Assembly (NCBI RefSeq): GCF_988243305.1
Contig: NZ_OZ547136.1
Reading direction: 5' to 3' (one strand)
Length of the DNA stretch: 64,000 nucleotides
The notes below the pieces were generated by a model, which searched no databases, had not been told where the DNA came from, and saw only the letters and a program-made list of their open reading frames with translations. Every line of letters starts with the position of its first letter. Position 1 is the stretch's first letter. Positions 54,758 to 64,000 of the stretch are shown here, piece by piece. Position numbers and translations under genes: made by a program.

Positions 54758-55429
54758 TCAGGCAATATTTAGATATTTATGTGTTTGCATCGACAAACGC
54801 CAATTACGAGCAATGCAGGTTTCAATGCACAATCGTGTGGCATCATCCTTTTGGCTAATCGGCTGCAGTGCAATGACTCGCGGTTTATCATCGGTCAGCG
54901 TCGCCAAAAGTTCATCCAGTGCTTCAATATCACGTACGCGTCCCACTGGATGCTTGATTTCGTTGGCTCGCTCCAGTGCCTGTGACAACACTTCATAGCC
55001 GCCGCGCATGTTCAGCTTTGGCGATACGGTAACCCAGGTATTCGGTGTGCAGCGTACCTCATGAGTACCACTGGTTTCGATCTGGCAGCTAAAACCGTTC
55101 TTTTCGAGCAGGTCAGTCAGTGGCAGCAAATCATGAATGCAAGGCTCACCACCCGTAATCACCACATGCCGCGCGGTGTATCCCTGGCGACCAATGACAG
55201 CCAGCAAGTCTTCACTGCTCGCCGCCCCCCACTTATCACTCTCTTTGGTCTTCGCCAGAATGCTGAAAAGGGAGACTTCCCGATCCTCAAGCTTTTCCCA
55301 GGTGTGTTTGGTGTCGCACCAGGCACAGCCAACCGGGCATCCCTGTAAACGAATAAAAATGGCGGGGACGCCGGTAAAGTAACCCTCACCTTGCAGGGTC
55401 TGGAACATCTCGTTAATCGGGTACTGCAT
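54758..55429 (-). CDS. queE: 7-carboxy-7-deazaguanine synthase QueE (radical SAM)
   Basis: 223-aa ORF MQYPINEMFQTLQGEGYFTGVPAIFIRLQGCPVGCAWCDTKHTW... Confidence 0.93.
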   Translation of the reverse strand: MQYPINEMFQTLQGEGYFTGVPAIFIRLQGCPVGCAWCDTKHTWEKLEDREVSLFSILAKTKESDKWGAASSEDLLAVIGRQGYTARHVVITGGEPCIHDLLPLTDLLEKNGFSCQIETSGTHEVRCTPNTWVTVSPKLNMRGGYEVLSQALERANEIKHPVGRVRDIEALDELLATLTDDKPRVIALQPISQKDDATRLCIETCIARNWRLSMQTHKYLNIA

Positions 55430-55601
55430 AGCATTCTCTGTGAAGTGGATAATTGTTAATTATTGCAGATCCTGCCACAACAATCATGTCTTATTAACAT
55501 TCTGTTACAGGCAGTTTTAAGGCAAAAAGTGGATTAGATCATAAAGAATAAAATGAAGCAGAGTATTATGTTTTAAGGAATTAATTAAAAGGGATTTAAA
55601 C

Positions 55602-56204
55602 ATGCTCAGAATATTCATCGTAATTATATTTATTTTCAATTTATCAGGCTGTGGATATAACGATATTCAAACCTATGATGAGCAGGTTAACGCCTCCTGG
55701 TCTGAGGTATTGAATCAATATCAACGTCGCGCCGATCTTATTCCTAATCTTGTCGCCAGCATTAAAGGTTATTCCAGCCATGAACGAGATGTACTGGAAG
55801 CCGTAACATTGGCTCGTAGCCAGGCTAATCGCGCCAGTAGCGATCTTCAGCAAACTCCGGGCGATGAACAAAAATTACAAGCCTGGCAACAGGCTCAAGC
55901 GCAGGTGACTCGCACTCTCGGTCAGTTAACGATAATTAGTGAGCGTTACCCTGAGTTAAAATCTCAGGAACTCTATCAAAATTTAATGGTACAGCTTGAA
56001 GGAAGTGAAAATCGGATTGCCGTTGCGCGAGGAAGATATATTAAAGCCATTGAACAATATAATGTCACTATCCGCAAATTCCCCGCTGTGTTAACCGCAA
56101 AGGTCATGGATTACACACCAAAGAAAAATTATTTGCCGGATGATGTCGCCGCAGTAAGTAAAGCCCCAACAATAGATTTTAGCCAGAATGCTAATGCTCA
56201 TTAA
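55602..56204 (+). CDS. LemA-family lipoprotein
   Basis: 200-aa ORF with lipoprotein signal/lipobox (FNLSGCG) and a LemA-like helical body; AT-rich. Confidence 0.8.
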   Translation: MLRIFIVIIFIFNLSGCGYNDIQTYDEQVNASWSEVLNQYQRRADLIPNLVASIKGYSSHERDVLEAVTLARSQANRASSDLQQTPGDEQKLQAWQQAQAQVTRTLGQLTIISERYPELKSQELYQNLMVQLEGSENRIAVARGRYIKAIEQYNVTIRKFPAVLTAKVMDYTPKKNYLPDDVAAVSKAPTIDFSQNANAH

Positions 56205-56217
56205 GCGGGGAAGTTCT

Positions 56218-57111
56218 ATGCGAAATTTTATCTTCCTTATGGCTTTCTTCTGTTCATCTGTGTTTGCCACACAAATTCCAGTACCTGAATCACCCAAGTA
56301 TGTGAATGACTTAACCGGCACATTAACAAACAGCGAAGTAAACACCCTGACCAACCAGATTAAAGCCCTGACGCAAAAAAACTACGCACAGTTGGTCGTG
56401 TTAGTGGTTGAAACAACTGGCGATGAAACCATCGAGCAGTACGCAACGCGGGTATTCGATAGCTGGAAACCGGGTGATAAAGACCACGATGATGGCGTTC
56501 TACTGTTAGTCGCCTGGCAGGATCATACCGTGCGTATTGAAATCGGTTACGGACTGGAAGGTATTATTACGGATGCACAGTCCGGGAAAATTATTCGCAA
56601 CAGTATTATTCCGGCATTTAAAAAAGGGGACCTGGCTGGTGGTTTGCAAAAGGGAATCAGCGATATTGAAAGTCGTCTGACGGGGAATAATTTAGCAACG
56701 ATAACACCGACCGATCACCCTTTGCCTTTTAGCGGTTGGTGGGCTTTGTTAGTCTGGGCGATAGTACTGACGTTTATTTCTGCCAGAGGATATATCAAAA
56801 CGCTGGGAGTAATTTGCTTCGCAGCTATTGTACTGGCCTTTGTTTTACCTATAGCAGGCTTCAGCGGAAGCTGGGGAGTACTCGCAACATTACTCTGCTT
56901 CGCCACACCGTTCCTGGCTGTCGCCATCGCTTTTACCCCCTTCGGCAAAAAGGTTCGGGATTCGATGCGTGATGCCAACCAGCCATCACGCCATACAAGA
57001 AGCAATTCTTCCTCCCACTATTCATCATCGTCATCCTCTTCATTCAACAATGACAATTTCAGCGGTGGTGGCGGTTCATCTGGTGGCGGTGGCGCTTCCG
57101 GGCGCTGGTAA
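56218..57111 (+). CDS. TPM-domain (YgcG-like) membrane protein, paralog 1
   Basis: Signal peptide MRNFIFLMAFFCSSVFA, TPM-like block (VNDLTGTLT...LVVLVVETTGDETIEQYATRVFDSWKPGDKDHDDGVLLLVAWQDHTVRIEIGYGLEG), two or three TM helices, Gly/Ser-rich tail ending GGGGSSGGGGASGRW. Confidence 0.8.
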   Translation: MRNFIFLMAFFCSSVFATQIPVPESPKYVNDLTGTLTNSEVNTLTNQIKALTQKNYAQLVVLVVETTGDETIEQYATRVFDSWKPGDKDHDDGVLLLVAWQDHTVRIEIGYGLEGIITDAQSGKIIRNSIIPAFKKGDLAGGLQKGISDIESRLTGNNLATITPTDHPLPFSGWWALLVWAIVLTFISARGYIKTLGVICFAAIVLAFVLPIAGFSGSWGVLATLLCFATPFLAVAIAFTPFGKKVRDSMRDANQPSRHTRSNSSSHYSSSSSSSFNNDNFSGGGGSSGGGGASGRW

Positions 57112-57125
57112 CAAAAGGAATTGAT

Positions 57126-58274
57126 ATGCGTATTTTTCTCTTACTTCTGATGCTATGCGGTTTTCAGGTATTCGCTGAACAATTGCCTTCAGTAACTGAC
57201 TTAACCGGGACATTAACGACAGAAGAACAAACTGCTTTAACTCAACAATTACAGACTCTCGAGCAGCAAAACCACTTCCAGGTGGCCGTGTTGGTCACGC
57301 CGACCACAGGGGGCAAAAACATTAAACTTGCAGCCTCGCAGAGATACGGGGTATATCACTGGAAACCCGTTGGAGAGAAGCGATATGGCGAAGGTATCTT
57401 AATTCTCGTCGTATGGCCGGAAGGGCTGGCGTCAATGAAGATTGGACATGGACTGGAACAGATGTTGCCGCCGGAACAAGCTTCGCAAATTGTTCGTTAC
57501 CATATGCAGCCAGAATTCGAAAAAAACAATCTCTTTGCTGGATTAACGGGCGGAATTGAAAGCATCGCACAGTTTACCCATATCAAAGCGAACCTTAGCC
57601 CTTTGGATGCTTTAGCCAATCATCTGTTTGCTAATCCGCAACGTTCGCTGCCTTGTCTTGCCTGGACACTGCTGATGATCGTTGCCATCGTTGTCCTCTG
57701 GCGATTTGCCAGCCGCCCAGGGCGTGGCATATGGATGATATCGATGATTACCCCTATGGTCTGGTTTTTCTCCTTTCAGGACGATGTCATCATTCGGCGG
57801 GTATCGGTCGTTTGTTTTAGTTTATTGTTAGCAACAACCTGCAAGCAGCGTCTCGCGGTAGTTTTTAATATGTGCCGCGTATTTCCTATGATGCTGACCC
57901 CAAAAAATAAAAACGCTAAAGTGAAAAAACAAAAGAAGACTCCGCAGGTTCGTGAATCAGGACGAAATTCATTGTTTGTCGTGATGCTGATAATTATTGT
58001 GGGATGGTGCCTGGTGTTCGCCAGTAATAAAGATATTGCATTCATCTCAACAATTATTGGGTTAATTGATCATTTTATCGGCCCAATAACCATTGCTGGC
58101 ATCGTTCTGCTGATCATTGTGGCCAAATTTACTGGCAATCTTAAGCTGGGATCAGGAGAAAAAAGCAACAGGAAAACGGGGAATCGTAATGCTCATTCTC
58201 GCTCTTCGTCGAGAAATTCTTTCCGCGGTGGTGGCGGTTCTTCAGGAGGCGGCGGTTCATCCGGCCGTTGGTGA
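57126..58274 (+). CDS. TPM-domain membrane protein, paralog 2 (diverged, extended membrane region)
   Basis: Signal peptide MRIFLLLLMLCGFQVFA, diverged TPM block, extra TM segments and a lysine-rich loop, tail ending GGGGSSGGGGSSGRW. Confidence 0.75.
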   Translation: MRIFLLLLMLCGFQVFAEQLPSVTDLTGTLTTEEQTALTQQLQTLEQQNHFQVAVLVTPTTGGKNIKLAASQRYGVYHWKPVGEKRYGEGILILVVWPEGLASMKIGHGLEQMLPPEQASQIVRYHMQPEFEKNNLFAGLTGGIESIAQFTHIKANLSPLDALANHLFANPQRSLPCLAWTLLMIVAIVVLWRFASRPGRGIWMISMITPMVWFFSFQDDVIIRRVSVVCFSLLLATTCKQRLAVVFNMCRVFPMMLTPKNKNAKVKKQKKTPQVRESGRNSLFVVMLIIIVGWCLVFASNKDIAFISTIIGLIDHFIGPITIAGIVLLIIVAKFTGNLKLGSGEKSNRKTGNRNAHSRSSSRNSFRGGGGSSGGGGSSGRW

Positions 58275-58279
58275 TCGTA

Positions 58280-59185
58280 ATGCGCTTAATCTTTATTCTA
58301 CTTGCTTTGTGGAGCCTTCCCGGGCTTGCCCAGCAAATTGCTGTGCCGGAGCTGCGCCAACAAGTGACTGATATTACTGGTACGTTAAGCACGTCTGAAC
58401 AGCAATCGCTAACGCAGCAGCTGCAGGATATTACACATAAAACACGGGCGCAGGTCGCTGTATTAGTAGTGCCGTCCACCGGAGACGATTCCATTGAACA
58501 ATATGCAGCACGCGTTTTTGATAGCTGGAAACTGGGAGATAAGCAGAGAAACGATGGTATTTTACTTCTGGTTGCCTGGGAGGAGCATGCTGTTCGTATT
58601 GAGGTTGGCTACGGGCTGGAAGGGGTGGTTACCGACCTGCAAGCGGCGAAGATTATCAGAGATATTTTGATCCCTGCCTTCAAAAGTGATGACCTGATGG
58701 GTGGATTAACACTGGCAAGCGAAAATATCGGCGCGCTTCTGTTGAATGGTGAATTATCGGAAGACAGGGGGGATTATTACAGTATCAATCCCTTTATTCC
58801 ATTATCGCTTGCTGTAATTATATTGCTGGCGGTACTTTCATATTTTATTGTTTTTACCGATCCGTCGAATTTACCCTGGATCACTCTCACTGGCGCCATT
58901 TACGGGATGGTATTCCTCTATGTTGCCGAGCCAGGACCATGGACCAATTTAATCGTTGCCTGCGGTATGCTCACGCCTTTTGCCATCGTACCACTGCTTA
59001 TTTTTTGGCTTATCGTTAATAAAAAGCTACGCGCTAAATACAAGAAGCTCGGTAAAGAAAGAGCTTCAAGAAAAGGTTCTTCTTCATCCTCTTCCGGTGG
59101 CGGCTCAAGTGGCGGAGGCTCAGGCGGTGGCTTTAGCGGCGGGGGCGGTTCTTCTGGCGGTGGCGGCGCGTCCGGTCGCTGGTAA
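58280..59185 (+). CDS. ygcG: TPM-domain membrane protein, paralog 3 (most likely the ygcG ortholog by position next to eno)
   Basis: Signal peptide MRLIFILLALWSLPGLA, TPM block highly similar to paralog 1, TM helices, long Ser/Gly tail ending GGGGSSGGGGASGRW; symbol tentative. Confidence 0.7.
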   Translation: MRLIFILLALWSLPGLAQQIAVPELRQQVTDITGTLSTSEQQSLTQQLQDITHKTRAQVAVLVVPSTGDDSIEQYAARVFDSWKLGDKQRNDGILLLVAWEEHAVRIEVGYGLEGVVTDLQAAKIIRDILIPAFKSDDLMGGLTLASENIGALLLNGELSEDRGDYYSINPFIPLSLAVIILLAVLSYFIVFTDPSNLPWITLTGAIYGMVFLYVAEPGPWTNLIVACGMLTPFAIVPLLIFWLIVNKKLRAKYKKLGKERASRKGSSSSSSGGGSSGGGSGGGFSGGGGSSGGGGASGRW

Positions 59186-59217
59186 CTCAACCATAAAAAA
59201 TGCCAGCCCGAAGGCTG

Positions 59218-60643
59218 TAATGCCGATCAGTTAAGGATCAGTTGACCGATCCAGTGGCTGTGTAAGAATCCGGAAACGCTCACTTGTTTCCGGATTTTTT
59301 TATGCACATTGGACAGGCTCTTGATCTGGTATCCCGTTACGATTCTCTGCGTAACCCACTGACTTCTCTGGGGGATTACCTCGACCCCGAACTCATCTCT
59401 CGTTGCCTTGCCGAATCAGGTACTGTAACGCTACGCAAGCGCCGTCTTCCCCTCGAAATGATGGTCTGGTGTATTGTTGGCATGGCGCTTGAGCGTAAAG
59501 AACCTCTTCACCAGATTGTGAATCGCCTGGACATCATGCTGCCGGGCAATCGCCCCTTCGTTGCCCCCAGTGCCGTTATTCAGGCCCGCCAGCGCCTGGG
59601 AAGTGAGGCTGTCCGCCGCGTGTTCACGAAAACAGCGCAGCTCTGGCATAACGCCACGCCGCATCCGCACTGGTGCGGCCTGACCCTGCTGGCCATCGAT
59701 GGTGTGTTCTGGCGCACACCGGATACACCAGAGAACGATGCAGCCTTCCCCCGCCAGACACATGCCGGGAACCCGGCGCTCTACCCGCAGGTCAAAATGG
59801 TCTGCCAGATGGAACTGACCAGCCATCTGCTGACGGCTGCAGCCTTCGGCACGATGAAGAACAGCGAAAATGAGCTTGCTGAGCAACTTATAGAACAAAC
59901 CGGCGATAACACTCTGACGTTAATGGATAAAGGTTATTACTCACTGGGACTGTTAAATGCCTGGAGCCTGGCGGGAGAACACCGCCACTGGATGATACCT
60001 CTCAGAAAGGGAGCGCAATATGAAGAGATCAGAAAACTGGGTAAAGGCGATCATCTGGTGAAGCTGAAAACCAGCCCGCAGGCACGAAAAAAGTGGCCGG
60101 GACTGGGAAATGAAGTGACAGCCCGCCTGCTGACCGTGACGCGCAAAGGAAAAGTCTGCCATCTGCTGACGTCGATGACGGACGCCATGCGCTTCCCCGG
60201 AGGAGAAATGGCGGATCTGTACAGTCATCGCTGGGAAATCGAACTGGGATACAGGGAGATAAAACAGACGATGCAACTGAGCAGGCTGACGCTGAGAAGT
60301 AAAAAACCGGAGCTTGTGGAGCAAGAGCTGTGGGGTGTCTTACTGGCTTATAATCTGGTGAGATATCAGATGATTAAAATGGCGGAACATCTGAAAGGTT
60401 ACTGGCCGAATCAACTGAGTTTCTCAGAATCATGTGGAATGGTGATGAGAATGCTGATGACATTGCAGGGCGCTTCACCGGGACGTATACCGGAGCTGAT
60501 GCGCGATCTTGCAAGTATGGGACAACTTGTGAAATTACCGACAAGAAGGGAAAGGGCCTTCCCGAGAGTGGTAAAGGAGAGGCCCTGGAAATACCCCACA
60601 GCCCCGAAAAAGAGCCAGTCAGTTGCTTAACTGACTGGCATTA
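59218..60643 (+). mobile_element. IS4 insertion sequence (1426 bp) with imperfect terminal inverted repeats and a flanking direct repeat
   Basis: Left end TAATGCCGATCAGTTAAGGATCAG, right end reverse complement TAATGCCAGTCAGTTAAGCAACTG; CAGCCCGAAGGCTG present immediately outside both ends (59204-59217 and 60644-60657); length equals the canonical IS4 length. Confidence 0.9.
59302..60630 (+). CDS. insG: IS4 transposase
   Basis: 442 aa from [40 protein letters not shown]..., recognised as the IS4 transposase. Confidence 0.9.
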
Positions 60644-60684
60644 CAGCCCGAAGGCTGGCATTTTTAAATCAGATAAAGTCAGAC

Positions 60685-61998
<1,314 letters not shown>

Positions 61999-62069
61999 TC
62001 ACTAGTTAAACTGAAACTCCAGACAAACAACGCGTACCCAGGGTACGCGTTGCCGTTCTAACTTTTTTC

Positions 62070-63722
<1,653 letters not shown>

Positions 63723-63935
63723 TTAGGTTGAAAAGACGATGGAATAACCAGGACGGGAAAGCAGTATACCCGAACATGACCTGTGCCACAAACTTTCATT
63801 ATCCCTCCTCTTCGCCAGCGCACTATTGAAATCAGGAGTGAGAAAATAGCCCCTTTGGGGTAAATGTTTTTGACGCAAATCAAGCGCTTGTCATTTAAAA
63901 AATGACACAAATCGCGCTTGACCACGTAATTCCCT

Positions 63936-64000
63936 TAGAGATCAATTTCCTGCCGTTTTACCTGTTGCCAGACTTCTTCCATTGTTTCGAGGTCAACACC
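63936..64000 (-). CDS. mazG: Nucleoside triphosphate pyrophosphohydrolase MazG, C-terminal 21 codons (partial, runs off window end)
   Basis: Reverse complement reads ...GVDLETMEEVWQQVKRQEIDL-stop; position upstream of pyrG matches the mazG-pyrG-eno order. Confidence 0.55.

Follow-up and report, generated by a model that had tools for sequence, protein, structure and literature searches.

Recurrent IS4 insertion in the terminator between ygcG and eno of Escherichia coli fits a known target preference and is predicted to be nearly neutral

What becomes of the 3' ends of two convergent genes, one of them the highly expressed eno, when an insertion sequence splits the terminator that lies between them, and why would the element land precisely there? 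Both questions are raised by the window analysed here, a stretch of 64,000 nucleotides from contig NZ_OZ547136.1 (RefSeq assembly GCF_988243305.1), in which a complete IS4 has inserted itself in the loop region of the terminator between a TPM-domain gene and eno, duplicating 14 bp. The explanation that we consider very probable as a whole is that IS4 inserts recurrently at this and other terminator sites by target preference, and that the insertion is nearly neutral by virtue of hairpins carried in the ends of the element.

A script check of the window, together with a reading of positions 58900-60900, places an intact IS4 at 59218-60643 (+ strand), exactly 1426 bp long. The element has the features of IS4, namely a length of about 1426 bp and 18-bp imperfect terminal inverted repeats that start with TAATGCC; these repeats, TAATGCCGATCAGTTAAG on the left (59218-59235) and TAATGCCAGTCAGTTAAG on the right (60626-60643), match at 16 of 18 positions according to the same kind of check. 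Compared with the IS4 of K-12, there are 5 nucleotide differences over 1426 positions. A single ORF (59302-60630, +) encodes an intact DDE transposase of IS4 type (InsG, 442 aa), which scores 304 bits against the NCBIfam model NF033592 (cut-off 115) and which RefSeq labels, at loci with 100% identity, as ‘IS4-like element IS4 family transposase’, adjoining a ‘TPM domain-containing protein’. The element is framed by a perfect direct repeat, CAGCCCGAAGGCTG, at 59204-59217 and 60644-60657 (script check), the length of which is exactly 14 bp since the bases adjoining its two copies differ. On its left lies the third and last gene of a tandem TPM-domain (ygcG-like) array (58268-59185, +, stop codon at 59183-59185; ygcG or ‘TPM domain-containing protein’ in RefSeq at identical loci), whose transcripts enter the left junction. 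On its right, eno (60685-61983, - strand, stop codon at 60685-60687; annotated as eno in matching genomes), beyond which lies pyrG, sends its transcripts into the right junction. The three tandem ORFs (56188-59185) encode proteins of 307, 382, and 305 aa, each with a Gly/Ser-rich tail (...GGGGxSGRW), with a 7-nt overlap between the last two ORFs. In K-12 there is one ygcG, with the small gene yqcG upstream of it, strain GN02350 has extra ygcG-like copies, and ygcG is annotated with an internal stop in two IS4-bearing strains. An Rfam scan of positions 55000-64000 returned no match at E ≤ 1.

Deleting IS4 and one copy of the repeat restores the empty site AAAAAATGCCAGCCcgaaGGCTGGCATTTTT, which reads in its flanking context as ...CCATAAAAAATGCCAGCCCGAAGGCTGGCATTTTTAAAT... 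and CCATAAAAAATGCCAGCCcgaaGGCTGGCATTTTTAAAT. On the + strand this sequence folds into a 13-bp stem closed by a tetraloop (-20.3 kcal/mol, z = -5.4), and the - strand forms the same 13-bp stem, its 64-nt fold reaching -24.6 kcal/mol (z = -5.3) with extra flank pairing included. U-runs follow the stem on both strands (U5 and U6), and the structure lies 9 nt past the TPM/ygcG stop and 19 nt past the eno stop, the two genes being convergent. Judging from its sequence and computed fold, the pre-insertion site is a bidirectional terminator of intrinsic type common to both genes. Its parts can be recognized on either side of IS4: the left remnant (59195-59203) consists of an A6 run (59195-59200) and TGC, the outer 5' bases of the 13-bp stem; the first copy of the duplication corresponds to the inner 5-bp stem and loop; and the right remnant (60658-60665) consists of GCA and a T5 run, forming with the second copy a weakened + strand terminator 3' of the transposase gene (scan match at 60644-60657, tail GCATTTTTAA). 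The first-pass annotation had proposed that IS4 split this stem-loop and left each gene with a shortened stem lacking its U-tract, and the coordinates, the 14-bp repeat, and the reconstructed fold bear it out: what each gene retains is a 5-bp stem (CAGCC/GGCTG) followed by TAATGCC. It had also named absence of the hairpin from the uninterrupted locus as grounds for refutation, a test that fails because 4883 of 5426 complete E. coli genomes (100-nt query, ≥80% coverage) carry it, some of them with 100% identity and with annotation as a ygcG-eno junction, and because K-12 has it as well, with the loop cgga where the window reconstruct has cgaa. At the 80% coverage threshold, ~380 of the 5426 genomes are neither clearly empty nor IS4-filled. 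In some of them the alignment is confined to query positions 183-300, starting 32 nt inside the eno-side flank, and such partial matches point to a different sequence downstream of eno. Among the open-access literature on bidirectional terminators, we found no paper naming the eno/ygcG terminator.

The insertion had been presented as a trait of ‘this strain’, with the suggestion to look for the same site in other genomes. The site does recur, and the strain-specific reading has to be abandoned: IS4 occupies the same terminator in 161 of the 5426 complete genomes, 77 of them in the window orientation and 84 in the inverted one. These counts come from 300-nt queries that join 150 nt from an IS4 end to 150 nt of the conserved eno side, which were used because short junction queries over-counted. 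With 80 nt, the queries yielded 160-174 and 739-747 filled sites, inflated by look-alike flanks at other IS4 sites; the larger excess (739-747) is probably owed above all to an IS4 remnant at the tdk/adhE site of ST131. An initial junction query of 401 nt missed filled sites, since ygcG alleles diverge at their 3' ends. Metagenome contigs (L062, L033, and L041) also show IS4 at the eno/ygcG site, in both orientations. In strain O39:NM F8704-2 (L096), an IS3-family element is nested inside the IS4 copy at this site. Four other metagenome contigs (L055, L059, L060, and L035) combine IS4 flanks from two different known sites, such as a left flank from tdk/adhE and a right flank from eno/ygcG; they result either from chimeric assembly over the repeat or from IS4-mediated rearrangements.

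The choice of this site can be compared with what is known of IS4 targets. The classical sites are the chromosomal copy of K-12, galT, and the attenuator terminator of pheS,T. The pheS,T insertion and a target consensus AAA-N20-TTT were reportedly described by Mayaux and colleagues (in Gene, in 1984), and work of Klaer and colleagues from 1981 is said to be the companion source for the classical sites and the target rule. The window target, A6-TGC-(14 bp)-GCA-T5 or, in short, A6-N20-T5, fits this consensus exactly. The insertion at the eno site is, in this respect, a textbook case of the established IS4 target rule, at a site that many annotated public genomes already contain; our additions concern how often the site is filled, the evidence that it was hit independently, the other terminator hotspots, the rule for the duplication offsets, and the substitute terminator of the right end. 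To describe the preference quantitatively, we compared 66 distinct half-site flanks, taken from E. coli genomes and from 80 metagenome contigs found by the IS4 left end (a sample biased to gut Enterobacteriaceae and to contigs assembled across an IS end), with random window positions. An A occupies position -18 from the IS end in 91% of the flanks (25% at random), an A-run (at least 4 A out of 5) spans -21 to -17 in 64% (2.5% at random), and G is found at -1 in 79% (25% at random) and at -4 in 77% (26% at random). Outer palindromes of 4 bp or more are present in the duplication for 47% of the flanks, compared with 3% at random. Likewise, among the 60 half-sites for which the flank reaches 700 nt or more, a long ORF runs toward the IS and stops within 100 nt in 45% (11% at random). 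Terminators are favoured as IS4 targets but not obligatory, since 36% of the 66 half-sites are devoid of a clear A-run and 53% of a palindromic duplication. IS4 prefers targets in which a G+C-rich core, in many cases a palindromic one, lies between an A-run and a T-run that are ~18-20 bp apart.

The IS4 copies at other sites that we retrieved from complete E. coli genomes (loci L001-L010 and L099) include insertions in the terminators of metK/galP (both orientations, 13-bp duplication), pdxK/crr (12 bp), tdk/adhE (both orientations, 11 and 12 bp), bamD/raiA (both orientations, 13 and 14 bp), and glcA (11 bp). The two orientations at metK/galP, tdk/adhE, and bamD/raiA come from different strains, and the terminators hit by IS4 mark the ends of highly expressed genes. 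The copy in the tdk/adhE terminator of the ST131 strain 2017_APHA (L099) is a remnant of 1145 bp, internally deleted and frameshifted, with ~97-98% identity over its two aligned blocks and a 12-bp duplication, CCCCTTCTGGGG; in Z0117EC0005 (L010), an IS200/IS605 element is nested inside IS4 at the bamD/raiA site. Two of the fetched copies are not in terminators: the non-palindromic site of K-12 (L011) and an insertion within the yicI coding sequence of GN05505 (L006), the target of which, AAATCGC-CAGACCTGGCTG-CCATTT, has the A/T-run pattern and no terminator. This last site suggests that IS4 recognizes the A/T pattern rather than termination.

These exceptions bear on whether the element might recognize a hairpin or cruciform, or the very act of termination, rather than the sequence or bend pattern formed by an A-run, ~20 bp, and a T-run. 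Such recognition would account for the excess of palindromic duplications (47% against 3% expected) and for the fact that most annotated sites are functional-looking terminators. We nevertheless consider it doubtful, as the most constant feature of the targets is the A at -18 (91%), which is kept at the hairpin-less sites of K-12 (CAGAACCAAGAT) and yicI, and the point at which IS4 joins its target tracks the edges of the A- and T-runs. We also considered mimicry of the IS ends, as the target half-site has AATGCCAG in common with the IS4 right end, and discarded it because this resemblance is not general at other sites. In the open-access literature searched, we found no paper describing terminator targeting by IS4; two articles mention the element in passing only (PMC1525189, PMC2965389), whereas De Palmenaer et al. 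can be counted as published support for an IS4 target preference.

A preference for the A/T-run pattern also offers an account of the length of the duplication. At 19 sites with both flanks known, 3 nt, or in some cases 4 nt, separate each end of the duplication from the neighbouring run (the A-run at its start, the T-run at its end), with spacers of 18 bp giving duplications of 11-12 bp, spacers of 19 bp giving 12-13 bp, and spacers of 20 bp giving 12-14 bp. The 14 bp of the repeat in the window would follow from its 20-bp spacer and its offsets of 3 nt on both sides. The range usually quoted for IS4 is 11-13 bp, which the window exceeds; the same 14 bp are found at four other loci (L092-L094 and L008) and 11-13 bp elsewhere. 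We take this 14-bp duplication to extend the published range, in connection with the 20-bp spacer, and not to argue against the identity of the element. For the IS4 subgroup, target duplications of 10-13 bp have been listed (PMC2266710). From the sequences flanking these insertions, we infer that each IS4 end would be positioned by its own half-site, the length of the duplication following that of the spacer. The offset rule is a simple and testable account of the variable duplication length of IS4.

Having lost their common hairpin, both genes probably receive substitute terminators from the IS4 ends. The first-pass annotation had noticed a hairpin with a T-run near the left end that could replace the lost terminator on one side; this hairpin is real and placed on the + strand as described, but the restriction to one side does not hold, the right end having an equivalent for eno. 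Read on the eno strand from 60639 to 60606, the right end forms the hairpin GCCAGTCAGTT-aagc-AACTGACTGGC followed by TCTTTTTC, with 11 pairs, 6 of them G-C, and a U-tract (UCUUUUUC). This predicted substitute terminator for eno was the top terminator-like match of our scan, and its stability (-18.7 kcal/mol, z = -6.1) is comparable to that of the native hairpin that was lost. The right terminal inverted repeat makes up one of its arms. The end of the element (60614-60643) is itself palindromic: the terminal repeat has an inverted copy in subterminal position with which it pairs, and the transposase stop codon (60628-60630) falls where the loop meets the 3' arm. At the left end (59264-59301, +), a core stem (59267-59277 with 59286-59296), extended to 59264-59299, and seven Ts (59295-59301) directly precede the transposase ATG at 59302. 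This hairpin (-18.8 kcal/mol, z = -6.2) was not flagged by the consensus terminator scan; it is predicted both to terminate transcripts of the TPM gene and to keep read-through out of the transposase gene. The ST131 remnant keeps it with a single change, located in the loop, so that this diverged copy offers no covariation in the end hairpins.

From these structures, eno transcripts would end at ~60606-60610, with a 3' UTR of ~78 nt instead of ~50 nt; that is, the 3' end is predicted to shift by ~28 nt and not to vanish, because a hairpin and U-tract facing inward are present in the right end. Transcripts of the TPM gene would end at ~59301, with a 3' UTR of ~116 nt instead of ~40 nt, ~76 nt longer, and the transposase gene would be spared their read-through. 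Because both IS4 ends contain strong inward-facing elements of this type, we expect the insertion to be nearly neutral, with little predicted change in the expression of either gene, and the prediction also holds for inverted insertions. Transcripts leaving IS4 may in turn be weakly stopped by the outward-facing half-terminators at both junctions, each made of the 5-bp stem and GCAUUUUU. A candidate transposase promoter (59242-59269, +; TTGACC-16-TG-AAGAAT) resembles the sigma-70 consensus, a weak match considering that 1 such match was found and 1.8 were expected. Transcripts from it would start ~7 nt downstream, at a point within the 5' arm of the left hairpin, and only read-through transcripts would therefore form the left terminator.

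The opposite view, which takes up the suggestion of the first-pass annotation on the eno 3' ends, is that loss of the native terminator alters 3'-end formation, mRNA stability, or expression of eno and the TPM gene, or lets transcription of the transposase strand run antisense into eno; it seems to us unlikely. It draws on the 5-bp stem without U-run left to each gene and on the weakening of the + strand terminator 3' of the transposase gene to the same short stem and its tail. However, strong hairpins with U-tracts are present in IS4, at 5-38 nt from the end that faces eno and at 47-84 nt from the end that faces the TPM gene, the sole promoter-like match within the element is the weak one just mentioned, and the insertion is tolerated in 161 genomes of several lineages and in both orientations.

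Near-neutrality of the insertion would fit its tolerance in the 161 genomes. Inspection of six filled genomes and the window revealed five classes of insertion: the window itself, in its own orientation with a 14-bp duplication and the cgaa-loop allele; L093 and L094, in the same orientation with 14 bp and cgga in both repeat copies; L095, again in the window orientation with a 13-bp duplication (AGCCCGAAGGCTG); L092, in the opposite orientation with 14 bp; and L097, in the opposite orientation with 13 bp and the cgga allele. The five classes are not interconvertible without new transposition, which implies that the eno/ygcG hairpin was hit by at least five independent IS4 insertions. A single ancient insertion spread by descent and recombination, with no hotspot, is extremely improbable, for although the filled genomes include close relatives such as IAI39 and CE10 and part of the 161 certainly reflects vertical inheritance, neither process turns one orientation, duplication length (13 or 14 bp), or loop allele in both copies into another. 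The repeated and independent choice of this terminator is explained by the fit of symmetric terminators to the target preference of IS4; a terminator hit is typical of the element and no coincidence.

Viewed against known systems, the window insertion resembles the classical IS4 cases in the element itself, 5 nt away from the K-12 copy, and in the target, as both its A6-N20-T5 and the K-12 site fit the rule; like the pheS,T insertion, it lies within a terminator stem-loop. It differs from them in its locus, in its 14-bp duplication, and in its recurrence in natural genomes in both orientations. A more distant parallel is IS231A, of the same family, for which Hallet and colleagues are said to have described in 1994 a target with a short palindrome at its core and bent A/T-rich DNA on either side. 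Both elements have symmetric targets with a G+C-rich core and A/T-rich arms, and duplications of about one helical turn, whereas element, host, and consensus differ and no link with terminators is claimed for IS231A. IS1397, IS621, and ISPpu9/10 insert in REP sequences, which are extragenic palindromes (PMC1525189). Like IS4, they favour intergenic palindromes situated downstream of genes, a choice that limits the damage to the host; in contrast with these elements (of the IS3 and IS110 families), which home to families of repeated REP sequences, IS4 targets unrelated single-copy terminators that have only a common pattern, and its transposase belongs to a different family.

A broader reading of these data is that IS4 homes to terminators and itself supplies the replacements for them: symmetric targets with A- and T-runs, fixed joins 3-4 nt from their edges, a duplication of 11-14 bp that reports the spacer, and inward terminators that keep the flanking genes terminated and shield the transposase gene. 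We put this forward tentatively, with a confidence that falls just short of an even chance. If it were true, the ends of the highly expressed genes eno, metK, crr, adhE, and bamD would be safe and reusable landing pads. For the window, the IS4 copy is a common and apparently tolerated IS polymorphism, which should not be taken as a lesion of eno regulation. Insertions of IS4 can be anticipated at the eno/ygcG, metK, crr/pdxK, adhE/tdk, and bamD/raiA terminators, and this knowledge can aid strain typing and the reading of assembly breaks. Should the end hairpins prove to be active terminators, IS4 would show clearly how target choice and end architecture can jointly minimise the cost to the host.
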